This document shows, in pieces, positions 1 through 13,801 of a stretch of 41,437 nt of DNA (within the stretch, counting starts at the first letter, position 1; every line of letters starts with the position of its first letter). The stretch lies in the IMG/VR virus record IMGVR_UViG_2061766007_000905, one strand, 5' to 3'. The DNA comes from an uncultured virus (IMG/VR IMGVR_UViG_2061766007_000905) (Duplodnaviria > Heunggongvirae > Uroviricota > Caudoviricetes). The position numbers and the translations under genes were made by a program. A model generated the notes under the pieces. It worked only from the letters and a program-made list of their open reading frames with translations. It searched no databases and was not told where the DNA came from.

Positions 1-22
1 CTTATAATACTAAATGTGAGCA

Positions 23-267
23 ATGCATACTATTGATTTAAGCATTAAAAAATATGTAAATCGGCATAATTTTGATATGTTGTGCAGACTGTATCATGAT
101 GTTGCGGGAAAACTTGAAGAACAGGGCTATGAAACAAATGGTTTAAATGATGAGCTTTATATAAAACTAAAGGTCAGCGAAAAGGAAAAATTATATCTAT
201 ATATTCATTGCACTAGTGAAAATAATAAGATTGAAGTTGAAGATCAACAGCTAGGTATCAGGATTCC
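23..267 (+). CDS. Partial near-identical copy of the 2026..2415 gene, truncated by an N-gap
   Basis: Nearly identical to 2026-2270 apart from a few substitutions; ends at a 10-N gap. Confidence 0.5.
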
Positions 268-280
268 NNNNNNNNNNAAT

Positions 281-365
281 GGAAGCGTAGGCTAATTGGT
301 AAGCCAGCACTTTGCTAAAGTGCCGTGGAGAAATCTGCTTGGAGGTTCGAGCCCTCTCGCTTCCG
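281..365 (+). tRNA. tRNA-Ser(GCT)
   Basis: Acceptor GGAAGCG/CGCTTCC, anticodon arm GCACT-TTGCTAA-AGTGC, long variable arm, T-loop TTCGAGC, G73. Confidence 0.93.
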
Positions 366-373
366 CTAATTAA

Positions 374-463
374 CGATCTGTGATTGGAATTGGTATACAG
401 CGTCGGCTCAAACCCGGCGGCCGAGATAAAAACGGATTGAGGGTTCGAATCCCCCCAGATCGA
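374..463 (+). tRNA. tRNA-Leu(CAA)
   Basis: Acceptor CGATCTG/CAGATCG, anticodon arm GTCGG-CTCAAAC-CCGGC, long variable arm, TTCGAAT T-loop, A73. Confidence 0.88.
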
Positions 464-471
464 TAATATAT

Positions 472-557
472 CCCTGTGTGGCGAAAATGGTTAATACGCG
501 TCAGACTTAGGATCTGGTGGATTAAATTCCGTGGGAGTTCGAGTCTCCCCTAAGGGA
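472..557 (+). tRNA. tRNA-Leu(TAG), acceptor stem with two mismatches
   Basis: Anticodon arm TCAGA-CTTAGGA-TCTGG, T-arm GGGAG-TTCGAGT-CTCCC; acceptor CCCTGTG/CTAAGGG has G.A and T.T mismatches. Confidence 0.78.
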
Positions 558-618
558 CTATAACGGTCGTTCGCTATCAGTTATTTTTTACGGAACTGGT
601 ATTATGACAATTCATAGA

Positions 619-626
619 TATAAATA
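619..626 (+). promoter_or_regulatory. T4-like late promoter TATAAATA
   Basis: Exact TATAAATA 4 nt before ATG at 631. Confidence 0.7.
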
Positions 627-630
627 ATAT

Positions 631-1841
631 ATGAATTTGACTGAAGCTTTAGATTTATTAAAGAAAAATAAATACCTAGTAGAATTAACAGCATTGCCTA
701 AAATCTATGACGATGATTATGGCAAGTATGCAAAGTTGACTAAAAAGGTCGTGAAAAACGTAACGTAAAAAATATTTATAAAGATGATCAACATTACCAT
801 GACTATGAAGGAAAGTTATGGCTAAATGTTAAACAAAAAGATCATACTACTCTAACTTTAGCTGCATTATCAGGATTATTAGATTCAGGTAAAATCAATA
901 ATTATAGTGATGGCCTTAAATATTATCCTGCTGGTAAAACCATGAAAGATGTATTTAATTTAGATACTATCGAACACAAGGCTGACTTATTAGAGGAATT
1001 ATCTTATTTTCCGAGTTTAAAAAAATTAATTAATAAAATATGTGGATTCCTGGAAGATAACATGAGTAAAAAACATCTTAGAGTATATAGAGGGCTAAGA
1101 TTAGATTCTCGTGGATTAGCACAATTATATAAGAAAGATAAATTTATATTTCAGTCACCTATAAAGCTCGTTCAATATCTCGATAATACCACAAAAGAAT
1201 TTAATTCATTTAGCGTAGATAAGAATGTTGCAAAAGACTTTGGTGACTATAATGATCATATTATTTTTTCTGGCGAAATAGATAATAATGATGTAAACTG
1301 GGCTTTCAGTGCATATCTTATGGGNNNNNNNNNNTCAATAGCTGAATCAGAATTAAATCTTAATAATTTAAAGCGTTTAAAAAATATAAGAATTGATAGT
1401 TTTAATATTACTGAAGAAACTAAAAAGGAAGCTAGACTATTTGTTAAACACCCAGATTTAAATGCTGCCTTCAGTCTTCCGACTAAAGCTAATTATTTCA
1501 TGATACGTAATAATAATTCCCGTAAGTATTTTTTATGCGATAACGACTGTAAAAAAATATTAGATAAACCAGTTCAAACGTTTAATATTATAGAGCGTGG
1601 TTATATTAAAATACTGTTCGATGATGATACATCCTGTTTAATCATACAAAAAACTGGAAAAATATTATTTAAAAACGGCTGCGATGAAATATTACGTATA
1701 CGTGAAAACAATATATATGTAAAAAATGGCGGCTATTATTATATCTTTGATGAAAATGAAAACGTATTATATAAAACACAAAACTATAATGACCTACGAA
1801 AGCAATATATCATTAAAGCGATTTCAAAATATTTGGGTTGA
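631..1841 (+). CDS. R-S-E family ADP-ribosyltransferase (Alt/Mod-like), apparently interrupted by a -1 frameshift near 741-765
   Basis: Motifs LRVYRGL, FNSFSVDKNVAKDF and AESEL in the 942..1841 ORF. That frame is open from 744, while the ATG behind the late promoter (631) is in another frame ending at 768. N-gap at 1325-1334. Confidence 0.72.
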
Positions 1842-1866
1842 CGAAAGTCAACCTTTTTTCTATATT
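1836..1866 (+). promoter_or_regulatory. Sigma70-type promoter with -35 inside a terminator-like hairpin
   Basis: TTGACG(1838-43)-17nt-TATATT(1861-66); hairpin GGTTGAC-GAAA-GTCAACC followed by a T-tract. Confidence 0.75.
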
Positions 1867-1871
1867 ATAAA

Positions 1872-2001
1872 ATGACGATAGTTTAGTAAATGGTGCTGAA
1901 AATTCGGTTCGAGTCCGATTAAGCCATGGACTGGTAAAAGCTGTTCGACTCAGCGTTTGATTTGTGGATTATCTGGCGGTTCGATTCCGCAATATCGTCA
2001 T
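1872..2001 (+). ncRNA. Putative tRNA-mimic RNA with three tandem D-like/T-like hairpin pairs
   Basis: Closing stem ATGACGATA/TATCGTCAT; T-arms TCGG-TTCGAGT-CCGA, GCTG-TTCGACT-CAGC, GCGG-TTCGATT-CCGC, each preceded by a TGG-loop hairpin. Confidence 0.75.
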
Positions 2002-2025
2002 ATTTTATAATATTAAATGTGAATA

Positions 2026-2415
2026 ATGCATACTATTGATTTAAGCATTAGAAAATATGTAAATCGACATAATTTTGATATGTTGTGTAGACTGTATCAT
2101 GATGTCGCGGGAAAACTTGAAGAACAGGGCTATGAAACAAATGGTTTAAATGACGAGCTTTATATAAAACTAAAGGTCAGTGAAAAGGAAAAATTATATC
2201 TATATATTCATTGCACTAGCGAAAATAATAAGATTGAAGTTGAAGATCAACAGCTAGGTATCAGGATTCCGACGATAATAGATGATTTTTCAAAACTGTT
2301 TAATACAGAAAGTCATCTTGTAAAAGGAATACTTGAATATAGGCAATTATGGAAACAGTTTAAAATATCAATGTCATCAAAGTTTGATATGGCTATAAAA
2401 ATGGATAAAATTTAA
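2026..2415 (+). CDS. Hypothetical protein, MH-start paralog family member 1
   Basis: Shares the (A)xxLExxG(Y/F/I)xTxGxNxxL motif with the next four ORFs. Confidence 0.8.
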   Translation: MHTIDLSIRKYVNRHNFDMLCRLYHDVAGKLEEQGYETNGLNDELYIKLKVSEKEKLYLYIHCTSENNKIEVEDQQLGIRIPTIIDDFSKLFNTESHLVKGILEYRQLWKQFKISMSSKFDMAIKMDKI

Positions 2416-2416
2416 T

Positions 2417-2845
2417 ATGCATATATTAGAAAACGATAATGTCTGGCGTGGGCCGTCAGATAGCGTATTTTTTAACAGAAAACGCGAGAGCGTGCATAAC
2501 CTGGCATTACGTCTTGAAAAGTTTGGCATAACTACATATGGTACGAATACTGAACTTGAGGCTGAACTTGATCTTGGCAGGCGTAAAATTACTATAATTC
2601 CGAGTTGGCGCTATGATGAATGGGATTCAGATGACAAGAATGACAAATACGATGTTGATATTTCGATTCCGGCATTAGGCGTAACTATTCCGATACGACT
2701 TTCAAAATTCAAAAAGACATTCAATAAGGACGGTTATTTGATGAAAGCAATAGATGAATATGAAGCATCATTATCCGCAGCGAAAGCAGCTTTCGCTAAT
2801 AATATAGAAACCGCTAGAATAATTGACGAGGCCGACGATGCATGA
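2417..2845 (+). CDS. Hypothetical protein, paralog 2
   Basis: MHILENDNVWRGPS...LALRLEKFGITTYGTNTEL. Confidence 0.8.
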   Translation: MHILENDNVWRGPSDSVFFNRKRESVHNLALRLEKFGITTYGTNTELEAELDLGRRKITIIPSWRYDEWDSDDKNDKYDVDISIPALGVTIPIRLSKFKKTFNKDGYLMKAIDEYEASLSAAKAAFANNIETARIIDEADDA

Positions 2846-3287
2846 AATTAAAAATGACCACGTATTTCGTGGACCGTCAGAAGGTATGTATTTCGATATG
2901 CGTGTTGAACATATTCATGAGCTTGCGGAAAAACTTGAAGCTAAAGGTTTTAAGACATATGGCGTAAATGAAGACCTAAGTATTTATATACCTAGCGAAG
3001 CTGAAGAAAAAAATGGTGTTAAATTCGGTAGAATGGATGGCATCATATTAAAACCATATTATTTAGGATTAGGCTGTTACGGCGGCCTAAGCGATCCTGA
3101 TAAAATTGGTGTAAAAGTTCCGGAGCTTCAGTTAACAATGCAGACGACGCTGGAAAATTTTAAAAAGACATTTGCTAAAAATGGACTTGTTGTCAAGACT
3201 CTCCGAGAATATAAGACTACTTTAGAAACACAGCGTAAAGTTATGTGTGAGAATCTTTCACTTGCTGTAACATTGGTCAATACATGA
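2838..3287 (+). CDS. Hypothetical protein, paralog 3
   Basis: Start moved to ATG 2838 (MHEIKNDHVFRGPS...LAEKLEAKGFKTYGVNEDL) by similarity to its paralogs. Confidence 0.8.
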   Translation: MHEIKNDHVFRGPSEGMYFDMRVEHIHELAEKLEAKGFKTYGVNEDLSIYIPSEAEEKNGVKFGRMDGIILKPYYLGLGCYGGLSDPDKIGVKVPELQLTMQTTLENFKKTFAKNGLVVKTLREYKTTLETQRKVMCENLSLAVTLVNT

Positions 3288-3299
3288 GGTAAACAGATA

Positions 3300-3758
3300 A
3301 TGCATACGATTGAGCGTGATAATGTAATGCGTGAACCATTTGAACGAGTCCAATTTAATAAAAAATGTGATCAGTTGCATTGGTTAGCGCAATGGCTTGA
3401 AGAACATGGCTATAAGACATTTGGTCAGAATGACCATATGTATGCACATATACCAGTGGGCAAATATGTATACGGTGCATATCCAAAATGGAAAAGCGAT
3501 GACGATCATTCGGAAATTCATCTAACTATTCCGTCACTTAGCAATGAAGTAATTAAGATAAAAACTGAAAGTTTTACAAAAGCATTTAGTCCGGATAGTT
3601 TTTTGACTAATACTATTCTTAATTATGCCAATGCGATTGCAGACTATAATATTAAGGTTGAACCTTTTAAGAAGTCGCTTCATTCAGCAGAACAGGCGTT
3701 TTTGAATAATATTGAGTTGGCAATGACGCTTGATGGGATAGAAGATGCACAAAGTTGA
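3300..3758 (+). CDS. Hypothetical protein, paralog 4
   Basis: MHTIERDNVMREPF...LAQWLEEHGYKTFGQNDHM; GAGG RBS. Confidence 0.8.
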   Translation: MHTIERDNVMREPFERVQFNKKCDQLHWLAQWLEEHGYKTFGQNDHMYAHIPVGKYVYGAYPKWKSDDDHSEIHLTIPSLSNEVIKIKTESFTKAFSPDSFLTNTILNYANAIADYNIKVEPFKKSLHSAEQAFLNNIELAMTLDGIEDAQS

Positions 3759-4155
3759 TTTTAACCAAGATAACATGAAAAGGGAATTCCATGACGCTAT
3801 AGCATTTCACAAGCGTACTAATGAGCTTCATTTTTTTGCTGAAACACTTGATGGTTATGGATTTAGAACTGAAGGCTTAAATGACGAGTTATATTGCATT
3901 GTTGATGATTTTACAATAAAACCAAGGCCAAGTCTTAATGGAAAAGAAGTTATTGTAGATATTCCAATACTTAAAACCAGTTTACGTATGTCATTTGAAA
4001 AATTTATTAAAACTTTTAATGATAAAAGCGGTTATGCGATTAAAGCAATTAAAGAAAATATTTCAACGGTAAAAGAATATAATAAGGCTATTGAACAATT
4101 GTTAAAATCTTCCAAAGAAAAAATTAACATGGCATTAACTATGGACGAAGTTTAA
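3745..4155 (+). CDS. Hypothetical protein, paralog 5
   Basis: MHKVDFNQDNMKREF...FAETLDGYGFRTEGLNDEL. Confidence 0.8.
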   Translation: MHKVDFNQDNMKREFHDAIAFHKRTNELHFFAETLDGYGFRTEGLNDELYCIVDDFTIKPRPSLNGKEVIVDIPILKTSLRMSFEKFIKTFNDKSGYAIKAIKENISTVKEYNKAIEQLLKSSKEKINMALTMDEV

Positions 4156-4173
4156 ATACGCATTTTTAACATT

Positions 4174-4320
4174 ATGTCATACAAAGAAGACATGTATACT
4201 GAATTTGAGCAGTTCAAGAAGGAGCATCCTGGATGTGGCCCGGCTGACAAGGCAATATTCTGGGAAGAAAAAGCGAACGAGCTTGCCGATATACTTCAAT
4301 GGACAACTGGTGGACGATAA
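4174..4320 (+). CDS. Small hypothetical protein (48 aa), not in ORF track
   Basis: MSYKEDMYTEFEQFKKEHPGCGPADKAIFWEEKANELADILQWTTGGR*; fills the gap after the paralog array. Confidence 0.6.
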   Translation: MSYKEDMYTEFEQFKKEHPGCGPADKAIFWEEKANELADILQWTTGGR

Positions 4321-4334
4321 ATAAAAATTTAGGG

Positions 4335-4363
4335 TTTACAAGTCAAGGATAATTTACTATATT
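4335..4363 (+). promoter_or_regulatory. Phage early/middle promoter
   Basis: TTTACA-17nt-TATATT, the consensus repeated through the window. Confidence 0.75.
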
Positions 4364-4369
4364 ATAACA

Positions 4370-4525
4370 CGTTAAATGAATCCTCTCATTAAGAACTAAG
4401 GTTGGTAATTCGTTTCACAGCAGGAAGTTCCTCATGGAATGCTACTTACCGTTAAACCGGATGTGCAAACTGCGCGTCATGTAGAGAACGGAATCCCGTA
4501 AAGTTTGGTTGTTCTTTGGATTTTA
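4370..4525 (+). ncRNA. Putative small RNA with its own promoter
   Basis: No convincing ORF; lies between two promoters; ends can pair (AATCC/GGATT, AAGAAC/GTTCTT). Confidence 0.45.
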
Positions 4526-4548
4526 AAAACAACTAAAAATTTTTAGGG

Positions 4549-4577
4549 TTTACAAAACTTAAAAAATTTATTATATT
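4549..4577 (+). promoter_or_regulatory. Promoter for the leader peptide and tRNA array
   Basis: TTTACA(4549-54)-17nt-TATATT(4572-77). Confidence 0.75.
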
Positions 4578-4640
4578 TAACATAGTTAAAAAGCGAAAAC
4601 GATGAAAAAGTTTTTATATATAATATAAAAGGTAAAAGCA

Positions 4641-4733
4641 ATGAACAACACTCAGTTTTATACATATTCATGTAATTCGATTTGTGGACAGCAGTCCTCA
4701 ATTTATTGCATGTATATCAAGACTGGTGGGTGA
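4641..4733 (+). CDS. Putative attenuator leader peptide (30 aa) MNNTQFYTYSCNSICGQQSSIYCMYIKTGG
   Basis: AAGG RBS upstream; TGA stop lies in the antiterminator 5' strand; codon content mirrors downstream tRNA anticodons. Confidence 0.75.
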   Translation: MNNTQFYTYSCNSICGQQSSIYCMYIKTGG

Positions 4734-4771
4734 CACCAAGAAAGTTCATATGTAACTTTTAAGGCGTCACT
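4729..4771 (+). promoter_or_regulatory. Putative antiterminator hairpin
   Basis: GGTGACACC(4729-37) pairs with GGCGTCACT(4763-71) with one mismatch, plus inner AAAGTT(4741-46)/AACTTT(4754-59); mutually exclusive with the terminator. Confidence 0.7.
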
Positions 4772-4791
4772 GAGAAAGTGACGCTTTTATT
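4761..4791 (+). terminator. Intrinsic terminator (attenuator) upstream of the tRNA array
   Basis: GCGTCACT-GAGAA-AGTGACGC followed by TTTTATT. Confidence 0.82.
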
Positions 4792-4868
4792 ATATGACTG
4801 AATAAACCCTTGAGACGTTTGTTGTATAGGATCGTTTATTCGGGCAATCGGTGAAAGCCCGATATTAT

Positions 4869-4953
4869 GGCAGTTTCGGATAGCGGCAATTCCTGGAGGC
4901 TGTAACCCTCCCGCCCTAACGGGCTTCCGTAGGTTCGAGTCCTACAGCTGTCA
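4869..4953 (+). tRNA. tRNA-Tyr(GTA)
   Basis: Acceptor GGCAGTT/AGCTGTC, anticodon arm GGAGG-CTGTAAC-CCTCC, long variable arm, GTAGG-TTCGAGT-CCTAC. Confidence 0.9.
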
Positions 4954-4962
4954 CTAACATTT

Positions 4963-5050
4963 GGGTAGGTAAGCAAGTGGTTTGAAGCAGAGTGACTGTA
5001 AATCACTTCCCTATGGGTAAACATCGGGGGTTCGAATCCCTCCCTGCCCA
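4963..5050 (+). tRNA. tRNA-Tyr(GTA), second divergent copy
   Basis: Acceptor GGGTAGG/CCTGCCC, anticodon arm AGTGA-CTGTAAA-TCACT, T-loop TTCGAAT. Confidence 0.9.
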
Positions 5051-5055
5051 CTAAA

Positions 5056-5136
5056 TGCAGAGAATGACTGATCATCATTGGGTTAATCTTGTCCTACACG
5101 GTTTCCTAGGACTAAGGATGGGGCACTCTGCAACCA
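5056..5136 (+). ncRNA. tRNA-like element with a 7-bp acceptor-like stem and ACCA end, no T-arm
   Basis: TGCAGAG/CTCTGCA + ACCA; internal hairpins AATGA/TCATT and GTCCTA/TAGGAC. Confidence 0.45.
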
Positions 5137-5139
5137 TTT

Positions 5140-5530
5140 AGATCGCAGTGACGCTATGCGAAAAGGAGGAATCCTAAAATAGCGGTCGTGTTTAAAAGAG
5201 GTAACAAAGGCGGAAGTCCGCTGAAGTTTTTCGGAATCTTCGGTAAAAACCGTAAAAAGAATTTAACACAAATGAGAAGAGCCCCGTGTTGCATCATTCT
5301 TGATTTCATGCTAACGGGTAGTAACCCTGATGAAGAAAACTCAGGGAGGAGGAATCTGTTTCTGCGAATTAGATGAATACCAGAATGATGGTCGCAGAGG
5401 CGTAGTATTGGCTCTACTAAAATATGCCACGTGAAGCCTTTTGAAATAGGAAAGGTCGGAGAACAACTAAGGAGTAACTACCTTAGATACTCGTTAAATG
5501 GTCCTTGCAATTAGGACGCCTGTAAGTTTG
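5140..5530 (+). ncRNA. Large structured ncRNA candidate within the tRNA array
   Basis: GC-richer than flanks, no credible ORF, many helices (CGCTAT/ATAGCG, CCCGT/ACGGG, CCCTGA/TCAGGG, TCTGCGA/TCGCAGA, CTAAGG/CCTTAG, GTCCT/AGGAC) and loop-loop complementarity. Confidence 0.6.
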
Positions 5531-5537
5531 TGAATAT

Positions 5538-5625
5538 GCGCTCTTGGATCGAGCCCGGTCGAAGATCATGGCCTGCAAAGCCACTGGAGGAAACTCCCAC
5601 GTAGGTTCAAATCCTACAGAGCGCT
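5538..5625 (+). tRNA. tRNA-Cys(GCA) with a long variable arm
   Basis: Acceptor GCGCTCT/AGAGCGC + T73, anticodon loop CTGCAAA, variable hairpin GGAG-GAAA-CTCC, T-arm GTAGG-TTCAAAT-CCTAC. Confidence 0.85.
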
Positions 5626-5630
5626 CTAAA

Positions 5631-5721
5631 TAGCACCGGATGTTCCTATTAATGGATGATAGGCCACCAGGCCTTGATTCGGTTCAAATCCGAAAGCCGA
5701 AAGGCAAATTACATCCCGCTA
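5631..5721 (+). ncRNA. Y-RNA-like/tRNA-mimic RNA, motif copy 1
   Basis: TAGC-ACC-GGATGT-TCCTAT...ATT-ACATCC-C-GCTA; interior has a D-like hairpin, T-arm TTCGG-TTCAAAT-CCGAA and GCC-GAAA-GGC. Confidence 0.7.
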
Positions 5722-5734
5722 AAAAATTAAAAAA

Positions 5735-5801
5735 TAGCATAAGAAGTTCCTATACGCCCAGTGGGCATCCGACTTGAAATCAGACCAATTACTTCTCGCT
5801 A
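5735..5801 (+). ncRNA. Y-RNA-like RNA, motif copy 2
   Basis: TAGC-ATA-AGAAGT-TCCTAT...ATT-ACTTCT-C-GCTA; interior has an anticodon-like arm TCCGA-CTTGAAA-TCAGA. Confidence 0.68.
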
Positions 5802-5807
5802 TTTAAT

Positions 5808-5879
5808 GGCAGTATAACACAATGGTTAGTGTAGCGGAATCATAATCCGTTAATATTGGTTCGAATCCAGTTATTGCTA
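5808..5879 (+). tRNA. tRNA-Met(CAT), elongator; Ile2 not excluded
   Basis: Acceptor GGCAGTA/TATTGCT, anticodon arm GCGGA-ATCATAA-TCCGT, T-loop TTCGAAT; lacks the initiator 3 G-C pairs. Confidence 0.82.
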
Positions 5880-5940
5880 TAATAATATAAGGGACAGATA
5901 GTTACCGCTATTTGATAAAATTAACCATTTTATCTAACCT

Positions 5941-5948
5941 TATAAATA
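5941..5948 (+). promoter_or_regulatory. T4-like late promoter for the homing endonuclease
   Basis: Exact TATAAATA, followed by hairpin TGTAGTTA/TAACTACA before the ATG at 6001. Confidence 0.65.
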
Positions 5949-6000
5949 TTGTGTAGTTACGGTAATAACTACATAAAAATAAAGTTAAAATAGGTTAAAT

Positions 6001-6807
6001 ATGGAATTAAAATATAAATATCATCAATATGGTGAATATATTTGTGAATTTTGTGGATTTAAAACAATTACAACATCAAGTAGAACTCAGCATTTAAATA
6101 AATGTAAAGAAAACCCTAATACTGAACAATATAAAATATATCATAGTAAATGTATATGTGAAATTTGTAAAAAAGAATTTATCGCAAAAAAAGGAACTAG
6201 ATTTTGTTCAAGTAAATGTTCACATTCACGTAAACAAACAGAAGAAACAAAAAATAAAATTAAAAATAGTATAAAATTAAATTATATCAAAAACGGTAAA
6301 GATAAACGCACAAAATTTTGTAAAGATTGTAATAAAAAATTAAAAAAATATGGCAAAGCAGAATATTGTAATTTATGTTGGCGTAAACATAAAATATGGT
6401 CAAATGAAGAAAAAGAAAAACAAAGTATAAATGGTAGATATGCTGCATCATGCATAAAACGGCGTTCTAAAAATGAAATAGCATTTTGTGAATTATGTGA
6501 AAAATATTTTAATAATGTTAAGCATAATGAAGCAATATTTAATGGTTGGGATGCAGATATTATTATTGAAGATTTAAAGATAGCTATTTTATGGAATGGT
6601 AAATGGCATTATGAAAAAATAATGGAAAAACATTCATTAGAGCAAGTTCAAAATAGAGATAAAATTAAAATAAAAGAAATAGAAAATGCGGGTTATACTC
6701 CATATATAATAAAAGATTTGGGAAGTGCAAATAATGAAAAAGTAAATATTGAATTTAAAAATTTTTTAGAATACTTAAAAATAAATTTTAATTATCGCGG
6801 CAACTAG
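6001..6807 (+). mobile_element. Free-standing homing endonuclease-like gene (Cys-rich Zn modules, NUMOD3-like motif, C-terminal Vsr/DUF559-like nuclease)
   Basis: CxxC repeats, KQTEETKNKIK, DADIIIEDLKIAILWNGKWHY...RDKIK; more AT-rich than neighbours; inserted in the tRNA array. Confidence 0.72.
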
Positions 6808-6871
6808 CTCAATTGGTTAGAGTTTCCGTCTGATACGCGGGAGGTTCCAGATTCGAGTTCTGGGTTGCCGA
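6798..6871 (+). tRNA. tRNA-Ile(GAT)
   Basis: Acceptor CGGCAAC/GTTGCCG, anticodon arm TCCGT-CTGATAC-GCGGG, T-arm CCAGA-TTCGAGT-TCTGG; overlaps the endonuclease stop codon. Confidence 0.88.
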
Positions 6872-6875
6872 TTAT

Positions 6876-6952
6876 CCACAGACAATAAGCCGATTGGTGC
6901 GGCAGCAAGTCTGATAAACTTGTAAGTGTTTGTTCAAATCAAACTCTGTGGA
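6876..6952 (+). tRNA. tRNA-Ile(GAT), atypical (6-nt acceptor-D linker)
   Basis: Acceptor CCACAGA/TCTGTGG, D-arm GCCG/CGGC, anticodon arm GCAAGT-CTGATAA-ACTTGT, T-arm GTTTG-TTCAAAT-CAAAC. Confidence 0.75.
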
Positions 6953-6963
6953 CTAAAAATTAT

Positions 6964-7049
6964 TGAGGATTACCCCTAATTGGTAAGGGACTGGTTTGGA
7001 ATGCCGGCGTGGGCTTGCTCACATGAAAGTTCGAGTCTTTCATCCTCAG
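6964..7049 (+). tRNA. tRNA-Ser(GGA)
   Basis: Acceptor TGAGGAT/ATCCTCA + G73, anticodon arm CTGGT-TTGGAAT-GCCGG, long variable arm, GAAAG-TTCGAGT-CTTTC. Confidence 0.86.
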
Positions 7050-7054
7050 CTAAC

Positions 7055-7441
7055 AAGCAAAGCTATAGGAATCATAATAGACTGCCGGATCCTATACACG
7101 TAGCATGCAACGTCGAAGATAAGGTCTAAGATTTATAAGTTTGGGAAAAGGTAAACTTATCCAGCATGGTTCACTGGTAACTATGAACCATTTTTTAGAA
7201 TTTGCCTAATTATACTTCTCGATAAAGTATATAATTCATGGTTTGTACAGACTATGATTAGATGCGGTGCCCGGCGGTCGGGACTGGCCGAAATCGAAAA
7301 TGTATCTAGTGAACCTAATAAGTAGTTCTTAAAGGGTGAAACTCTAGTTGCCTTCGGCTTCGTAAAATGGAGTTCAAACGAAGTCATCCCGGTTTCTGGA
7401 ATGGTCTACCAAGACAAGTGCTTAACTAGCTCAAGAAACCA
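7055..7441 (+). ncRNA. Second structured non-coding block within the tRNA array
   Basis: Serial helices TATAGGA/TCCTATA, ATAAGTTT/AAACTTAT, ATGGTTCA/TGAACCAT, CATGGTTTG/CAGACTATG, GGCTTCGT/ACGAAGTC, GGTTTCT/AGAAACC; no credible + strand ORF. Confidence 0.5.
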
Positions 7442-7447
7442 TTTTAT

Positions 7448-7540
7448 GGCGGTGTGGTCCGAGTGGCTTAAGGCGGCTGATTTGAAATCAGCAGAGGGTA
7501 GCGATCCTGTCCTCCGTGGGTTCGAATCCTACCACCGCTT
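7448..7540 (+). tRNA. tRNA-Ser(TGA)
   Basis: Acceptor GGCGGTG/CACCGCT, anticodon arm GCTGA-TTTGAAA-TCAGC, long variable arm, TTCGAAT. Confidence 0.88.
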
Positions 7541-7549
7541 CGAATTTTT

Positions 7550-7633
7550 GGAAGTGTCCCGCAACTGGTGGCGGAGCTGCTTCGAACGCAGTGAGTCAGA
7601 GATGACTTGGAGGTTCGAATCCTTTCACTTCCG
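7550..7633 (+). tRNA. tRNA-Ser(CGA)
   Basis: Acceptor GGAAGTG/CACTTCC + G73, anticodon arm GCTGC-TTCGAAC-GCAGT, variable arm GAGTCA/TGACTT. Confidence 0.9.
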
Positions 7634-7640
7634 CTATTAT

Positions 7641-7711
7641 TGCCGGTTGGTGTAATGGTAGCACAGGGGTCTCTGAAGCCCTTAGCATTCGATCGTAACG
7701 AGTACCGGCAA
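7641..7711 (+). tRNA. tRNA-Gln(CTG), non-canonical T-loop
   Basis: Acceptor TGCCGGT/ACCGGCA (U1-A72), anticodon arm GGGGT-CTCTGAA-GCCCT, T-loop ATCGTAA. Confidence 0.85.
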
Positions 7712-7719
7712 CTTTATTA

Positions 7720-7753
7720 AAGGGTTTACAAAAAACCCTTCTTTTTTTATATT
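7720..7753 (+). promoter_or_regulatory. Terminator/promoter cassette closing the tRNA array
   Basis: AAGGGTTT/AAACCCTT hairpin + T-tract containing TTTACA(7725-30)-17nt-TATATT(7748-53). Confidence 0.72.
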
Positions 7754-7788
7754 TAATTTATGTTTATTTAAAGTAAAGGATTGAAAAT

Positions 7789-8229
7789 ATGTTGATTGAA
7801 AAGATAAATGCAGATATTATTGCTAACATGAAGGCAAAGAATTCTATAGATGCAACTATCCTGAAAACACTTAAGGCAGATATTCAGAAGGTATCTATTG
7901 ATACTAAGAAAGATATCGATGATATCATGGTCATTGATGTAACAAGTCGGACAGTTAAGCAATTTAATGATGCGCTTGATATGTATATTAAGGCTAATCA
8001 AGTTGAACATATTACTGAAACTAAGCATCGTATCGAAGTTGTTTCTGCATATTTGCCAGAACAGGTTTCTGAAGAAGAAGTAATTGCCGCAGTCAATGAA
8101 GTTAAGATTAAAATTGGCGCTACTACAAAGAAAGACATGGGTAATATGATGAAAGAATTGTCGCCTATGTTCAAAGGTAAGTTTGACCAGAAAAAGCTGT
8201 CACAAATTGTTAGCTCTGTTTTAGTTTAA
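7789..8229 (+). CDS. yqeY: GatB/YqeY domain protein
   Basis: 146 aa; INADIIANMKAK, EVVSAYLPEQVSEEEV and KKDMGNMMKEL match the YqeY pattern. Confidence 0.85.
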   Translation: MLIEKINADIIANMKAKNSIDATILKTLKADIQKVSIDTKKDIDDIMVIDVTSRTVKQFNDALDMYIKANQVEHITETKHRIEVVSAYLPEQVSEEEVIAAVNEVKIKIGATTKKDMGNMMKELSPMFKGKFDQKKLSQIVSSVLV

Positions 8230-8331
8230 CAGATTTTAAAATATTCAAATAAAAATATCGTTCATCAACATGAACGATATTTTTTTATATTTGTAATATG
8301 GATTTAAAATTGATTTAAATAAGGATATCAG

Positions 8332-9268
8332 ATGAGCCATTTTACAACATTCGTTATTTCGAAAACGGATAATAGAGAAGAACTTGAAAGATTGATGTTG
8401 CCATATCATGAATATGAATGCACAGGAATTACAGAATACTGTATTCACCAGGACATAACAGATGAAACAGTTACTGATTATAATGAAAATAAAGAAGATT
8501 ACGAGTCGGTAGAAGATTTTCTTGATAGCTGGCACGGTATAACTAATGTCTATGAGTCTGAACCGGAAACTAAGCCGGAAGATTCGTATGCTGTCATAAA
8601 GGATGGTCAGATTATAAAGGCATACAGGTTTACCAATCCTAACAGCAAATGGGATTATTATGGCCCATATAGTTGGGAACGTAGTGAATATGTCAATATT
8701 GATGGAGAAACAGACGTAATTAAGAAGTCTCAGTTCGACATAGACGCATTCATGGCTAAGAGAAAGGAATATTATACGGAATTATATAATAAGCTAAAAC
8801 CGTATTTTACGAGCGACTTTATTACGTGGGAACAAGCACGAAAAGAAAATGAAAATCTTGACGCGGCCAGGGATGTCTATAATAACCAGCAGTCCATGAA
8901 GGATATGAACGAAAAACTTGGCTCCGGTGAAGTATTCCATATTAGGTGGAATATCAATATTGACGATGTTGCTACTAAGACCTTAGACGAATTCGTNNNN
9001 NNNNNNCGAAGTATTTCATCTTAGATGGAATATCAATATTGACGATGTTGCTACTAAGACCTTAGACGAATTCGTAAAGGCGAATTTAGATACGGTTGCG
9101 CCGTTCTGGGCAATGGTTACGCCGGACGGTAAATGGATTGAAAAAGGCAAGATGGGCTGGTGGGCTATTTCTTGGGACGAAGATAATAATTTCAATAAGA
9201 CATGGACCGAAGTCTGGAAAGAAATTCCGGATGACTATTATATCTGGAAATGCGATTGCCATATTTAA
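8332..9268 (+). CDS. Conserved phage hypothetical protein (NPNSKWDYY, GKMGWW, C-terminal DCHI), split by an assembly gap
   Basis: Frame broken at the N-gap 8997-9006. Post-gap sequence repeats about 8929-8996, then continues ...AMVTPDGKWIEKGKMGWWAIS...CDCHI*. Confidence 0.75.
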
Positions 9269-9274
9269 TAAGAG

Positions 9275-9640
9275 GTGCTTATGTATTATAATAATATTGA
9301 AGATACTTGCTGGGAAATCAAAGACATTATTAAAGAAAATTTTTTGGACGAGAATGACAAAGAAAAAGATACGTTTGTCTTGTCTAAGGAAGACGCGCAT
9401 AATATCCTAAAGAAACTGCGGGAAATCGAAAATGAAGCCGATGACTTGGAAGCTGATATAGACAATAAAGAAGATGACATTTCAGAACTTGAAGATCGAA
9501 TATCTGATTTGGAATTTTATGACGATATTCCTGACGAGCTTGCGATGTTATTACATGACCGTAACTATGATTTAGGAACAGTTCTCGAATTAAAAGAAAC
9601 GATTATAAATGTCTTAAAGAAACGCGGCTATAATGTTTAA
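9275..9640 (+). CDS. Acidic coiled-coil hypothetical protein
   Basis: GAGG upstream; heptad pattern LEADIDNKEDDISELEDRISDLE. Confidence 0.7.
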   Translation: MLMYYNNIEDTCWEIKDIIKENFLDENDKEKDTFVLSKEDAHNILKKLREIENEADDLEADIDNKEDDISELEDRISDLEFYDDIPDELAMLLHDRNYDLGTVLELKETIINVLKKRGYNV

Positions 9641-9652
9641 TTCGATAAAGGG

Positions 9653-9681
9653 TTTACAAAAACCCTTTATTTTTTTATATT
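9653..9681 (+). promoter_or_regulatory. Terminator/promoter cassette
   Basis: TTTACA-17nt-TATATT with -35 in hairpin AAAGGGTTT/AAACCCTTT. Confidence 0.72.
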
Positions 9682-9688
9682 ATAATCT

Positions 9689-9907
9689 ATGGGAAAAGAA
9701 CAAGTAAAACTAAAAGAATACTCTTTTGAAATCGGACCGATTGACGATACTAGCGAAACTGTCGCTATTGTCGGAGAAGAGTATTCCAGTGTCGGAAGCG
9801 ATGAAAAGTTTTACCGCAAGGAAGACGTCGATAAGCTGATTGCGGAAAAAGATAAAGAAATCAAGATGCTGGAATACATGTTGCATATTTCTTCGAAACA
9901 GGTATAG
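9689..9907 (+). CDS. Hypothetical protein
   Basis: ORF starts 7 nt after the -10 box, possibly leaderless. Confidence 0.7.
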   Translation: MGKEQVKLKEYSFEIGPIDDTSETVAIVGEEYSSVGSDEKFYRKEDVDKLIAEKDKEIKMLEYMLHISSKQV

Positions 9908-9908
9908 T

Positions 9909-10316
9909 ATGAAATCGATATTTATCAGCGGTAGTTCGTCTATTCATGAATTGACAACGGACATGGAAAAAAGCCTTGACGAAATTATCAAGCGTAAAAT
10001 TCCAGTTCTTATCGGTGATTGCTATGGCATAGATTCATTAGTCCAGCGGTATTTTCATGAAAGAAATTATAAAGATGTTACCGTCTATTATGTCGGCAGT
10101 TATCCCAGATGTCATTTTATCGAATTCAAGAAAAAAGACTGTAACGACCTAGTATCTAATGAAACAGGTCGTGCGTTCTATGAAGTCAAGGATATTCAAA
10201 TGTCGGAACATTGTACTGGCGCATTGATGTTCTGGGACGGTAAAAGCCAAGGCACAAAAAACAATATCGAGCGCTGTAAAAAATTAAAAAAGAATTATAA
10301 AATTGTAAAAGGTTAA
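9909..10316 (+). CDS. SLOG superfamily (YspA/DUF2493-like) protein
   Basis: IFISGS, IGDCYGIDSL, KDIQMS and FWDGKSQGTKNNI motifs; start reassigned to ATG 9909. Confidence 0.72.
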   Translation: MKSIFISGSSSIHELTTDMEKSLDEIIKRKIPVLIGDCYGIDSLVQRYFHERNYKDVTVYYVGSYPRCHFIEFKKKDCNDLVSNETGRAFYEVKDIQMSEHCTGALMFWDGKSQGTKNNIERCKKLKKNYKIVKG

Positions 10317-10318
10317 TC

Positions 10319-11140
10319 ATGGATATTAAAGCAGAAAATTTAAAAGTATTCAACGATACGCTTAAGCAGATTAAAAACGATAAGACTTTGAACGAATCTG
10401 TCGGAAAGTCGGTCTCGGATTCTAAGGTCTATAGCGATTTTTATTTCCGGACATTTGAAATGCCGAAGTTTGAAAACATCGGCCCGGCAAAGGTAAAGGT
10501 CACAAAGAACAGTTCGTTCAATGCGGCAAGAAATTATAACGGGAAAGTAGCGGTCCTTAACTTCGCATCGGCTACGAACCCGGGCGGTGGCGTTACCAAG
10601 GGTTCTACCGCACAGGAAGAATGCCTTTGCAGATGTTCGACTCTTTATCCGGTGCTTTCGGATAGCAGATTTGACATTCCGTACTATGGCTTGCATAAGC
10701 GTGACGGAGACGCATTGCATAATAATGATATTATCTATTCTCCGAACATTTACATTATCAAGTCCGATAATTACACTAATCTTTTCAGGCCGTCAACTGT
10801 AAATGTCATTACATGTGCCGCGCCGAATCTTCGTGAAACGCCGGCTAACGCTTATAACCATGAACGCGGTGAAAGACCGAATATCAGCGATAAGGAATTG
10901 CTGAAGCTTCATGAAAATCGCGGCAGGTGTATTCTTCGAGTTGCTGCAGAAAATGGCAATGAAACAGTTATTCTCGGCGCTTTCGGTTGTGGCGCATTTA
11001 AGAATAAGCCGGAAATTGTTGCACAGGCATACAAGAATATCCTTCCGGAATTCGTAAATCATTTCAAGAATATCGAATTCGCGGTATTCTGCGGGCGCGA
11101 TACTGTAAACTATGATACATTCAAGAGGATTTTAGGTTAA
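10319..11140 (+). CDS. TIGR02452/DUF2263 macrodomain (bacterial-type poly-ADP-ribose glycohydrolase-like)
   Basis: VLNFASATNPGGG, AQEECLCRCS, IYSP, ITCAAPNL, ILGAFGCGAF. Confidence 0.9.
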   Translation: MDIKAENLKVFNDTLKQIKNDKTLNESVGKSVSDSKVYSDFYFRTFEMPKFENIGPAKVKVTKNSSFNAARNYNGKVAVLNFASATNPGGGVTKGSTAQEECLCRCSTLYPVLSDSRFDIPYYGLHKRDGDALHNNDIIYSPNIYIIKSDNYTNLFRPSTVNVITCAAPNLRETPANAYNHERGERPNISDKELLKLHENRGRCILRVAAENGNETVILGAFGCGAFKNKPEIVAQAYKNILPEFVNHFKNIEFAVFCGRDTVNYDTFKRILG

Positions 11141-11141
11141 T

Positions 11142-11699
11142 ATGAGCGAAACAGTTAATGAATTCGTAAAAGCGGCAATTCTTAACACAAAAAAGAATAT
11201 TCCAGATTATTTTGTAAAATGCCTGGAACAAAGATTGTGTAACGGTCAAGGTAGTGTTACAGATTTTGATAATGTTGAAGCCCTTGAAAAGCAGCTTCTT
11301 GAATCGGACTGGAAAGAATATCATCATCCGAATATCGCCGATGGCTGTTCAGCATATAAGACTGAATCGTTTGGCGGATATATCGGTATGATTCCGCTCG
11401 GATGCTTGCCTGGCGATACGATTTGCCGATTCACGGATGTCAAGGGAACTGGAACTTTGTCACTTACCTGTTATGCCGATACGGATAGACACCCGGTCAA
11501 TTATAATATATTGATTGTCGGTGATGACGGTTTTGGCCCATGTATGTTTACGTTCCATCCGGGTGAACCATTGCGTCCGTCAACTTTGTCGTCTGATGGC
11601 AATAATGAATTCGGGTACAAAGAAGGTACGACTATTACTGTTGCCAAAGCAATCCTTCTCGGTTTCAGGTATGCGAAGCTCCAGACCACAAAAAATTAA
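11142..11699 (+). CDS. Hypothetical protein
   Basis: 185-aa ORF abutting the previous gene; MFTFHPGEP motif. Confidence 0.75.
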   Translation: MSETVNEFVKAAILNTKKNIPDYFVKCLEQRLCNGQGSVTDFDNVEALEKQLLESDWKEYHHPNIADGCSAYKTESFGGYIGMIPLGCLPGDTICRFTDVKGTGTLSLTCYADTDRHPVNYNILIVGDDGFGPCMFTFHPGEPLRPSTLSSDGNNEFGYKEGTTITVAKAILLGFRYAKLQTTKN

Positions 11700-11719
11700 A
11701 ACTGATTTAATTTTAGGGG

Positions 11720-11748
11720 TTTACAAAAGTAAAATTTTTTACTATATT
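11720..11748 (+). promoter_or_regulatory. Phage early/middle promoter
   Basis: TTTACA-17nt-TATATT. Confidence 0.75.
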
Positions 11749-11767
11749 TAATCTCACAAAATGAATA

Positions 11768-11822
11768 ACGCATAGAGGGTTCCTATGAAATGGTTCTAGG
11801 AAATCAAGTTTACCCTCCGCTA
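11768..11822 (+). promoter_or_regulatory. 5'-leader RNA element, motif copy 3
   Basis: GC-ATA-GAGGGT-TCCTAT...TTT-ACCCTC-C-GCTA immediately before AAGGA RBS; same architecture as 5631 and 5735. Confidence 0.72.
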
Positions 11823-11836
11823 AAAAGGAAACAATT

Positions 11837-13801
11837 ATGTCTAAGTTGTCTAAGTCCACTCTCGTTAAGATTATTTCCATGTTCAATGTCGCCCCAGAAG
11901 CGACAAATGAAAATCGACTTTCATTTGAGGAAGTCAACAAGGAATCGTCTAAGTACGGCTATTTGATTCATCCGGATTGCTGCTCCGATATTACTCTTCA
12001 GTGGGTTAAGGATGTTGCACGTACTAACTATAACAAGACTTTCTATAAGAAGTGGGAAGATATTACCTCCAAGACTCGTTTTGAGCTCTTGATTGATCAG
12101 TTGCTGCATTATGCATCTACCTACGGAACTAATTTTACCGAAGGTAACGGTTATGTTCCGAATGACGGTCCGGATGTAGAAATTCCGTTCGAAAACTTCA
12201 AGGTTATTATGCCGGCAACCGATCGTGAAATCTACGACCGCGCAGTAGGTATGTTTGCTAGCGGTATCGCTCTTGAAGGTGATACTGTAGATACATTGTC
12301 TGATTTTGTTCTTTATCATGTAAAGAACTCTGGTTTCGAACTTGATGTTGATAAGATTAAGAACAAGGAAGTTCAGGTCAAGTTCTGTGATGAACTCAAT
12401 GTTACGCCGAAGGATGCATTTGCGCTCTTGCGTTATCTCATCTATAAGGCAACTGGCAAGTTCATGCTCATCAAGGACCGCGCAACAATCAAGGCCTTGA
12501 AGGAAAACCATGACAAGTACAGCATCGTTGGCCTCACCCAGGAGCAGAAGATTTCTTTGGCTTCTATCTTCTATCGATTCAAGCCGTTGTTCCTTGCAAT
12601 GAAGTCGTCTGAAGGTACTTCTAAGTCAATGATGACTGACGCCTTTAGGAAGGCCGCTGCTAAGGTCGGCGTTAAGTCCTTGACCAAGGTTACAAACGCT
12701 TCGGTCATCAACGAGATCCGTCGTCTTGCAAAGACCTATCATAAGCCGTTTAAGGCTGGCCTCTGGGAAACTGTCCTTTGCGAAGAGAAGGACTTGGACC
12801 AGGTAAAGGCTCATCTTGGCGATATTACTAACTTCAAGAAGATTACGCTTATGCAGGGCATTCTTGCTAAGCTCCAGAAGTGTAATGGTAAGATGTATGT
12901 CATTCGTAACGGCCGTATGTGGGTTGACGAAAACTATAAGCCGAAGAAGGATAAGACTTCTTACTTGATGTCTCTTTATGGATTGCTCGAACAGTCTATT
13001 GTCGATTCTATCAAGTCTAAGGCTGGTCTCGTCGTTGTACCGAAGAACGTTAACTTTACCATTCCGACTTCGGAAAAGAACTTCATCGGTAACTATCCGT
13101 TTGGCACGTCCGTTGACCTTGGCGACAAGAACAACGTTATCGGTATCTACTGGCGTAACGAATGGGGCACTCGTGACTTCGACCTTCACATGTATGACCT
13201 CGAAGGCCATTCTTATGGATGGAACTCGTCTTATACGAACAGCAAGAACACTGTCATCTATTCCGGTGACATGACTAATGCTGAACCGGAAGCAACTGAG
13301 TTGTTCTATTTCAGTAAGGCTGTCGGTTCTGCTAAGGTTTCTGTTAACCAGTTCTCTGGTCAGCCGAAGTCTCAGTTCAAGCTCTTCGTGGCTACTGAAG
13401 ACATGACTTCTAAGCTCGGTTCTAGCGGCTTCGGTCGTCGTAACGGTGGCAACATCGTTATGTGTGATCCGAACAACGTCAAGGCTGAATTCATTATTCC
13501 GGTCGACAACGAATCTTGTAAGGAATGTGCATTGATTACCGATAATAAGGTTCATCTCATGGATCTTACTTCAGGCAGCGGTCGTGTTCCGAATTCAAAG
13601 TATAGCAAGGTTTACCTTGAACAGCTTGAAATCAAGAGCCGTACGTTCATCGACTTGAATGATGTTCTCGTTAAGGCTGGCTTTACGCTGGTTAACGAAG
13701 TTCCGGAAGTAGCAGAAGGCGAAACCGCTCCGAAGGTAGTTCTTGATTTGACCAATCCGGCTAAGGATGATCTTATCAAGCTCTTCAGCGACGCTAAGTA
13801 G
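11837..13801 (+). CDS. Large helical protein with C-terminal TerD-like domain (possible divergent Ro/TROVE-TerD fusion)
   Basis: GIYWRN..RDFDLH..YGWNS..YSGDMTNAEPEATE resembles TerD motifs; the N-terminal ~400 aa look helical; strong high-expression-type codon bias. Confidence 0.68.
   Translation: MSKLSKSTLVKIISMFNVAPEATNENRLSFEEVNKESSKYGYLIHPDCCSDITLQWVKDVARTNYNKTFYKKWEDITSKTRFELLIDQLLHYASTYGTNFTEGNGYVPNDGPDVEIPFENFKVIMPATDREIYDRAVGMFASGIALEGDTVDTLSDFVLYHVKNSGFELDVDKIKNKEVQVKFCDELNVTPKDAFALLRYLIYKATGKFMLIKDRATIKALKENHDKYSIVGLTQEQKISLASIFYRFKPLFLAMKSSEGTSKSMMTDAFRKAAAKVGVKSLTKVTNASVINEIRRLAKTYHKPFKAGLWETVLCEEKDLDQVKAHLGDITNFKKITLMQGILAKLQKCNGKMYVIRNGRMWVDENYKPKKDKTSYLMSLYGLLEQSIVDSIKSKAGLVVVPKNVNFTIPTSEKNFIGNYPFGTSVDLGDKNNVIGIYWRNEWGTRDFDLHMYDLEGHSYGWNSSYTNSKNTVIYSGDMTNAEPEATELFYFSKAVGSAKVSVNQFSGQPKSQFKLFVATEDMTSKLGSSGFGRRNGGNIVMCDPNNVKAEFIIPVDNESCKECALITDNKVHLMDLTSGSGRVPNSKYSKVYLEQLEIKSRTFIDLNDVLVKAGFTLVNEVPEVAEGETAPKVVLDLTNPAKDDLIKLFSDAK

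Follow-up and report, generated by a model that had tools for sequence, protein, structure and literature searches.

Leader-peptide attenuators govern the amino-acid operons of enterobacteria, being multivalent at ilvGMEDA and thr and also found at trp, his, leu and pheA, while in pheST attenuation at the pheM leader controls phenylalanyl-tRNA synthetase. The tRNA sets of T5 and other phages have reportedly been proposed to offset host tRNA loss or anticodon nucleases, and to our knowledge these accounts describe no sensing circuit. Attenuation is textbook material for amino-acid operons, and no published account of leader-peptide attenuation of tRNA genes, in which the sensed molecule would itself be the product, was found in the full-text literature outside subscription journals. 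In Anabaena, the trn operon is placed under a repressor, TrcR (PMC8421152, PMC10272220), and neither of these two papers contains the words leader or terminator, or the stem attenuat-. This work concerns a 41,437-nucleotide stretch of DNA from an uncultured virus of the Caudoviricetes (IMG/VR record IMGVR_UViG_2061766007_000905), hereafter the window, in which a promoter, a 30-codon open reading frame (ORF) and an intrinsic terminator stand ahead of an array of tRNA genes.

This unit is probably a ribosome-mediated (leader-peptide) transcription attenuator that gates the phage tRNA array, thereby making tRNA supply demand-driven. Whereas the classical scope of such attenuators is amino-acid biosynthesis or aminoacyl-tRNA synthetase genes, the downstream genes here are tRNAs. 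An initial annotation, made from the sequence alone, had proposed that the leader is an attenuator whose codons mirror the downstream array, and analyses of folding, codon enrichment and co-variation among relatives support that core proposal.

Results

Anatomy of the leader unit

The unit comprises the following features.

4545..4577, + strand: leader-unit promoter, consisting of AGGGTTTACAA, a 17-nt spacer and TATATT; the same module heads every leader found
4617..4633, + strand: leader-specific motif of the 5' untranslated region (UTR), TATATAATATAAA, then the Shine-Dalgarno sequence AAAGGT (4628-4633); common to all leader classes
4641..4733, + strand: leader ORF (leader A) of 30 codons, MNNTQFYTYSCNSICGQQSSIYCMYIKTGG followed by a stop; 18/29 codons array-cognate, 8/8 distinct anticodons represented
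4729..4737, + strand: antiterminator 5' strand GGTGACACC, with the TGA stop codon (4731-4733) inside it; pairs with GGCGTCACT at 4763-4771
4741..4759, + strand: inner hairpin AAAGTT/AACTTT within the antiterminator (4741-4746 with 4754-4759); compatible with both states
4761..4795, + strand: intrinsic terminator with an 11-bp stem, GAGAA loop and T-run (hairpin 4761-4787, -16.2 kcal/mol)
4798..4863, + strand: structured spacer RNA between the terminator and the first tRNA; conserved and not promoter-like, with stems that co-vary among classes A, A2 and YDM

Promoter, ribosome-binding site, ORF and terminator all lie where the initial annotation had placed them. The promoter core, TTTACA-17-TATATT at 4549-4577, is sigma-70-like and forms part of the longer motif AGGGTTTACAA, of which the window holds five + strand copies against 0.81 expected; the UTR motif TATATAATATAAA at 4617..4633 is the sole exact copy in the window. 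The inner hairpin shows compensatory changes in relatives, reading AAATTC/GAATTT in L039 and L050. No N-run falls in the leader and array region; the window overall has eight.

Codon content of the leader matches the array behind it

The tRNA genes downstream of leader A are listed below; except where stated, each was called by both ARAGORN and Rfam.

4869..5051, + strand: tRNA-Tyr (GTA), two genes
5538..5626, + strand: tRNA-Cys (GCA)
5807..5880, + strand: tRNA with a CAT anticodon, elongator type, Met or Ile2
6798..6871, + strand: tRNA-Ile (GAT)
6876..6953, + strand: non-canonical tRNA-like cloverleaf with a GAT anticodon; partial Rfam match of 30.5 bits and a cloverleaf fold, not called by ARAGORN
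6964..7050, + strand: tRNA-Ser (GGA)
7448..7712, + strand: tRNA-Ser (TGA), tRNA-Ser (CGA) and tRNA-Gln (CTG)

Nine tRNAs are therefore called across 4869-7712; the tenth of the original description, its second GAT tRNA, survives only as the non-canonical cloverleaf. By its sequence, compared with tRNA identity rules, the CAT tRNA does not qualify as an initiator.

Cognate codons were assigned by standard wobble, with G34 reading C or U, U34 reading A or G, and C34 reading G. On this basis 18 of the 29 codons of leader A that follow the start codon (19/30 when it is included) are read by tRNAs of the array, among them 17 of codons 7-26 and ten in succession, exactly as first counted. Long ORFs of the phage use these codons at a frequency of 0.20, giving a binomial P of 9.6e-7; leader A ranks first among the 536 ORFs of 20-60 codons found in six frames of 54.6 kb, and none of 200,000 simulated ORFs reached 18 cognate codons. 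The enrichment over phage codon usage that the initial annotation had expected is thus borne out. Coverage of all eight anticodons would arise by chance with P = 0.002. The serine codons of leader A are all of the TCN type (4/4), in line with the Ser GGA, TGA and CGA genes of its own array. One supporting argument proved weak, namely that the exclusive use of CAG for glutamine was telling in an AT-rich genome: the phage's long ORFs contain 158 CAG against 131 CAA, and CAG is not disfavoured.

A second leader and array in a near-identical record

A further record, G001, shares 99.7% identity with the window across 278-8996 and extends 13 kb upstream. It reveals that the window begins inside a second array (array B), which is complete in G001 and runs in the order Trp CCA, Leu TAA, GAG, CAG, GAG, Ser GCT, Leu CAA, Leu TAG. 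Array B is headed, behind the same promoter and UTR, by a different leader, MNVLSLNILLLSSLLLSWLLRRSIVGTR (leader B), which contains all six leucine codons and one TGG, and in which all five serine codons are AGY. Sixteen of its 27 codons are cognate to its array and all seven anticodons are covered (rank 1/536, P = 1.9e-9). Exchanging the partners abolishes the match almost entirely, with 0/29 cognate codons for leader A against array B and 1/27 for leader B against array A. The division of serine codons between the two leaders, TCN in one and AGY in the other, tracks the location of the corresponding serine tRNAs, and is not predicted by an explanation at the level of amino acids. As the tRNA-Trp gene of array B starts within a few bases of the T-run, nearly abutting it, this array is reachable only through the terminator.

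Two mutually exclusive RNA states

Before the 3' arm of the terminator is made, the best predicted fold in both leaders pairs the last codons and the stop with the terminator's 5' arm. In the window this antiterminator joins 4729-4737 to 4763-4771, with the inner helix 4741-4746/4754-4759, at -15.8 kcal/mol; this is the pairing originally proposed. For leader B the corresponding value is -15.9 kcal/mol, and the terminators have energies of -16.2 (leader A) and -15.0 kcal/mol (leader B). When the full sequence is folded, the terminator state is the minimum. Hence two mutually exclusive states exist (-15.8 against -16.2 kcal/mol in the window), as the initial annotation had anticipated. A small hairpin at 4724-4738 also appears in the minimum-free-energy fold, and no conserved equivalent of it was established across leader classes.

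The same arrangement recurs in the representatives of other leaders that were folded: a terminator is present in 18/18, and in 18/18 the 5' strand of an antiterminator lies between -23 and +12 nt from the stop codon, with sequences that differ among classes. In an alignment of ten Trp/Leu attenuators (A1), 100/100 terminator cells and 80/80 antiterminator cells are able to pair. This alignment also contains a three-way co-variation, a single event in which column 77 changes from C to U and its partners, column 87 and column 8, each change from G to A; such a change looks like the signature expected of two alternative helices sharing a strand. A second alignment (A2; classes A, A2 and YDM) had helices out of register between subclasses, and was not used for pair counts. 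A ribosome that has reached the stop would sit over the antiterminator strand, and one stalled at codons 5-25 would leave it free.

Leaders co-vary with their arrays across a phage family

Relatives were sought with a pattern made up only of the promoter core, the UTR motif and an ATG, which is blind to codons and to tRNAs. Among viral contigs it recovered G001 and one further record, L010. A looser pattern (the promoter core plus CAATGAAC) returned these two records again, together with L022, L023 and L027, which are chance matches with neither leader nor tRNAs, and L071, matched among genome contigs, was likewise a chance match. Metagenome contigs yielded 43 stretches on 35 contigs with the survey pattern. 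The units found by motif each hold a short ORF of 19-35 codons (51/51), and tRNAs follow the leader in 47/51, the remaining four running into contig ends. Together, the leader classes cover all 20 amino acids; their arrays are as follows.

MKMLSLTILLLSSLLLSWLLRRSIVGTK: array Trp/Leu/Ser-GCT
MKKVCLTSLLLLSLLSWCFVVHSRDKVTNL: array Trp/Leu/Cys/Ser-GCT
MLHSYSYSWSLVPSSMFGYSMYYMGCRD: array Tyr/Met/Ser
MNKNFNIEIVAFAAERIAVFAERVFAIDNSVHRFK: array Glu/Ala/Phe/Val/Ile
MTMNVFAHEFFAAERAAFAERAFAEFMSRLRA: array Glu/Ala/Phe
MQSIVTTNVTPVNNPKVTFD: array Asn/Pro/Thr/Met/Val
MTKFVVDTHDCKTRRDGRGFGKHDKDRYLHRVI: array Asp/Gly/Lys/His
Homologues of leader A: arrays Tyr/Cys/Met/Ile/Ser

Across six independent classes, the mean match of a leader to its own array is 0.54, against 0.11 for the other arrays, and the true pairing ranks first of 720 permutations. 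Individual tRNAs behave in the same manner. Where tRNA-Cys belongs to the Trp/Leu array, the leader of that array has two cysteine codons, and the Tyr-array leader keeps one, within the antiterminator strand; in the window type, with tRNA-Cys in the Tyr array, leader A has three cysteine codons and leader B none. The Ile GAT gene accompanies leaders A and EAFVI, which have three and five isoleucine codons, and is absent with A2 and EAF, which have none (0, 0). Valine tRNAs occur with EAFVI (four valine codons) and are absent with EAF (one). Gln CTG ends array A, whose leader has three CAG codons, and is absent from array A2, whose leader has no glutamine codon. The covariation with array content proposed at the outset is therefore found in relatives for Cys, Ile, Gln and Val. 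Furthermore, the anticodons CTG, TTT, TCT and CCT of L036 had no cognate codon in the leader assigned to them, and a hidden leader was therefore predicted in a 730-nt gap of this contig; as predicted, the gap contains a further promoter, an ORF (MKQFVKQVKQIRKQQIAVCFAMGDE) and a terminator directly before the genes for Gln/Lys/Arg/Arg.

These matches bear on an alternative use of the same RNA switch, in which it would report general translation capacity, such as ribosome availability, inhibitors or global stress, rather than the supply of specific tRNAs. Any stall, or the absence of translation, would free the antiterminator, and the spare tRNA operon of Anabaena is described as induced by general translational stress (PMC8421152, PMC10272220). 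A general sensor needs no particular codons, yet the leaders match their own arrays, and both the TCN/AGY split in serine and the wider content of the leaders follow the arrays and the tRNAs relocated between them. This explanation is accordingly improbable, albeit the likeliest of the alternatives to a tRNA-specific attenuator.

Signs of leader translation, and access to the array

The pattern of substitution resembles that of a translated sequence. Between the window and L010, the leader has five synonymous and no non-synonymous changes, along with one deletion of a whole codon, and within classes all differences in leader length are multiples of three. Further afield in class A, conservation of the peptide is lost, and the changes mostly swap one array-cognate codon for another (Tyr>Ser, Ile>Cys, Asn>Ile). 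Such behaviour is more in keeping with a track of codons than with a functional peptide.

No consensus promoter on the + strand was found between 4578 and 5984 in a sigma-70 scan, which would miss phage-specific promoters; the independent promoter between terminator and first tRNA that would have counted against the initial annotation was likewise not seen in consensus form. In classes B, B2, DGKH, EAFVI and NPTV, the first tRNA begins 60-76 nt past the stop codon, directly after the T-run, and this abutment leaves no room for a separate promoter.

Both sets of observations speak to a second alternative, which is very unlikely: that the short ORFs are either incidental or code for small peptides with a function of their own, that the hairpin is a constitutive, leaky insulating terminator, and that the tRNAs are transcribed by leak-through or from unrecognised phage promoters. 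Leader B is hydrophobic enough to resemble a membrane peptide, the blind spot of the promoter scan applies here too, and a conserved 66-nt element separates the terminator from the first tRNA in Tyr-headed arrays. Against this, other leaders are charged rather than hydrophobic, class A retains its codon class instead of its peptide sequence, and the match extends to the level of codons, as the serine split and the presence of all six leucine codons attest. The element between terminator and tRNA has RNA-like co-varying stems and is absent in L028, five classes have no space for a promoter at all, and an antiterminator over the end of the ORF recurs with unrelated sequences in each of the folded representatives.

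The spacer element itself, of about 66 nt (4798-4863), has the conserved loops CCCUUGAG, UGUAUAGGA and CGGUGAAAG. It is absent from L028, where tRNA-Tyr directly follows the terminator, and an Rfam search with it gave no match. The element may act as a signal for processing or stability.

The least probable alternative is a reversed polarity, in which translation of the leader would promote read-through, the ribosome melting the terminator and abundant tRNA turning the array on: coupled ribosomes do suppress terminators in some systems, such as pyrBI, but here a ribosome at the stop cannot reach the terminator, because the 5' arm starts about 30 nt after the stop's first base (4761 against 4731), and it is the antiterminator strand that would be covered instead.

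Part of the stretch is present in 18 runs recorded as RNA, of which seven hold more than a small share; four of these seven, bovine gut metatranscriptomes by label, were examined as Logan contigs. Two of the four contain a contig that extends from the leader through the terminator into the first tRNA (X1, 4668-4885; X2, 4627-5254), and one RNA-library contig spans 4868-7559, across the array spacers. The read-through form is present in RNA libraries, with DNA carry-over possible. Contig depth is greater over the array than over the leader region, with the flanks uncovered; it cannot rank expression and is not used as evidence.

Discussion

A proposed feedback circuit for tRNA supply

The proposed attenuator would operate as follows. 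Transcription would begin at the promoter at 4549-4577, and a ribosome would load on the strong AU-rich ribosome-binding site and translate the 30-codon leader, whose codons would be those read by the tRNAs encoded downstream. With fast decoding, the ribosome would reach the stop and cover the antiterminator strand at 4729-4737, such that the terminator at 4761-4787 would form and the array would be off. Slow decoding of any one cognate codon would instead stall the ribosome upstream, as would be expected when charged tRNA for that codon runs short because of demand from phage mRNA, starvation or tRNA cleavage; the antiterminator would then form first, and RNA polymerase would run on into the array. 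New tRNAs would relieve the stall, and tRNA supply would therefore be under negative feedback, with several inputs acting as an OR gate. Each isotype-sorted array of the phage family is headed by this module, every time with a different leader. To the anatomy, codon statistics, alternative folds, replication in a second array and co-variation described above, this account adds that the leader would be translated in vivo and that the switch would turn in the direction given, with host anticodon nucleases as a conceivable natural trigger.

Multiple observations temper this conclusion. Firstly, no conserved anti-antiterminator hairpin of the 1:2 type was found among the leader classes, and the default state without translation would be read-through. 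Secondly, the antiterminator strand of class B2 lies 16-23 nt upstream of the stop, where a terminating ribosome covers only part of it. Thirdly, the codon-level match is weak in two pairs, YDM_L061 (7/30) and KQR_L036 (7/24), and in the latter three of the five glutamine codons are CAA, which a CTG anticodon is not expected to read; some anticodons also have no cognate codon in their leader, namely CTC (EAFVI, EAF), CAT and CGG (NPTV), CAG (B2) and CCT (KQR). Fourthly, instances within a class are not independent, because the classes share a recent common module. Fifthly, weak promoter-like matches (9 of 12) occur inside the array at 5985, 6231, 6366 and 7050, and distal tRNAs could therefore have extra inputs. 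Sixthly, neither the ends of an RNA nor its strand or level can be read from Logan contigs, and RNA libraries may hold DNA. Finally, the only hint of a host is a 1.6-kb contig binned with an Acutalibacteraceae metagenome-assembled genome (MAG); transcription and translation are uncoupled in Bacillus subtilis, and a Firmicute host would make ribosome-mediated attenuation harder.

A broader interpretation is possible, and is offered tentatively. The family appears to encode almost a full tRNA complement, distributed over about six arrays sorted by isotype:

Tyr/Cys/Met/Ile/Ser/Gln
Trp/Leu/Ser-AGY
Glu/Ala/Phe/Val/Ile
Asn/Pro/Thr/Val/Met
Asp/Gly/Lys/His
Gln/Lys/Arg

Were each of these gated by its own codon-matched leader, the virus might be running a per-codon monitor of host decoding and replacing exactly those tRNAs that are scarce, including any destroyed by anticodon nucleases deployed as host defences, in which case the attenuators could, besides being economical, double as sensors for counter-defence.

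The array and its genomic context

Further features within and around the array are listed here.

4331..4363, + strand: upstream copy of the promoter motif (AGGGTTTACAA ... TATATT), heading a non-coding unit at 4364-4540
6001..6807, + strand: HNH-like endonuclease ORF inside the array; absent from the same place in L010
7720..7753, + strand: terminator-like hairpin closing the array; overlaps the next promoter-motif copy, which precedes the YqeY-like gene
7789-8229: YqeY-like protein, directly after the array
10319-11140: microbial PARG-like protein
34759-35562: Thg1-like tRNA-His guanylyltransferase or tRNA 5'-repair-type enzyme

The HNH-like ORF sits between the CAT tRNA and tRNA-Ile, overlapping the start of the latter by 10 nt; it looks like a mobile insertion, because L010 has both tRNAs 67 nt apart with no ORF. 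The cloverleaf at 6876-6953 has 6 nt between its acceptor and D stems and a 6-bp anticodon stem, and is conserved in L010 (G003 2102-2158). The spacers at 5051-5538, 5626-5807 and 7050-7448 (180-490 nt) contain no called tRNA and no ORF above 70 codons, and some have T-arm-like motifs. In L034, the full tRNA model of Rfam aligns over 114-117 nt at 1054-1170 and 1180-1293, and these are therefore taken to be tRNA genes with insertions of about 45 nt; they have a promoter of their own and precede a leader, and their insertions carry the motif TTCCTATTAAT, which also occurs in an array spacer of the window near 5641. The tRNA-Asn gene of L052 appears to be interrupted after the anticodon.

Just 5' of the leader promoter, the non-coding unit of about 170 nt at 4364-4540 is conserved in L010 and L039, with a fold z-score of -1.38. 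Other leader classes (L044, L045, L052, L069) have a different conserved unit there, of about 140 nt, promoter-driven and with a co-varying hairpin. Searched with Rfam, the leader, the spacer element and the promoter-driven non-coding units matched no known family, and at E <= 1 the matches within 1-12000 were confined to the tRNA clan and one weak chance hit, with no leader family and no T-box. Bases 2-267 of the window are 96% identical to the region at about 2005-2270 of the same phage, and this identity gives the first 267 bases the look of a separate fragment attached across a gap.

In a search for cultured relatives, a megablast of 4300-5100 against phages gave no match, a distant search among phages matched only tRNA-Tyr genes, in 65 records, and tblastn with a 1005-aa ORF found no match among cultured relatives. 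Serratia phage BF was considered as a relative and set aside, its tRNAs being interspersed with ORFs and no comparable unit being present. G002 has a YqeY homologue 81% identical, yet no tRNA in 105.7 kb. CheckV completeness is 7% (30.8 kb), 26% (105.7 kb) and 4% (18.7 kb), values that point to a genome several hundred kb in size. Few genes received a name from PHROGs and Pfam; besides the YqeY-like, Thg1-like and PARG-like proteins, the window encodes RNase H-like and SLT proteins. By their predicted identities, the Thg1-like, YqeY-like and PARG-like genes suggest that the phage invests further in tRNA biology and in resisting host defence.

Comparison with described systems

The closest counterparts of this unit are the multivalent ilvGMEDA and thr leaders, with which it shares a short ORF, close to the promoter, in which regulatory codons for several amino acids abound, and an intrinsic terminator with a mutually exclusive antiterminator, between which the position of the ribosome would decide. 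Unlike the leaders of amino-acid operons, the phage unit would regulate tRNA genes rather than biosynthetic enzymes, making the product the very molecule that is sensed; it has up to eight anticodon inputs, is phage-borne and modular, with one leader per isotype-sorted array, and has neither a match to an Rfam leader family (E <= 1) nor an identified hairpin of the 1:2 type. The pheST system is similar in that part of the translation machinery is under leader-peptide attenuation that responds to the supply of charged tRNA, but its one input is Phe, its target is a synthetase rather than tRNAs, and it belongs to cells, not viruses. T-box riboswitches resemble the phage unit in sensing the status of tRNA and switching between terminator and antiterminator; they differ in binding uncharged tRNA directly, with no ribosome and no ORF, and 1-12000 of the window contains no T-box match.

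If this reading is correct, large phages measure the speed of decoding codon by codon and adjust tRNA supply to match, which would explain the sorting of phage tRNA genes into blocks and provide a testable link between phage tRNAs and the depletion or cleavage of host tRNAs. Such units would also offer synthetic biology compact natural sensors of individual tRNA pools. The trn operon of Anabaena is likewise an accessory tRNA array kept off and switched on under translation trouble. With the tRNA sets of T5 and other phages the arrays described here share a rationale, to which they would add a built-in sensor of their own.

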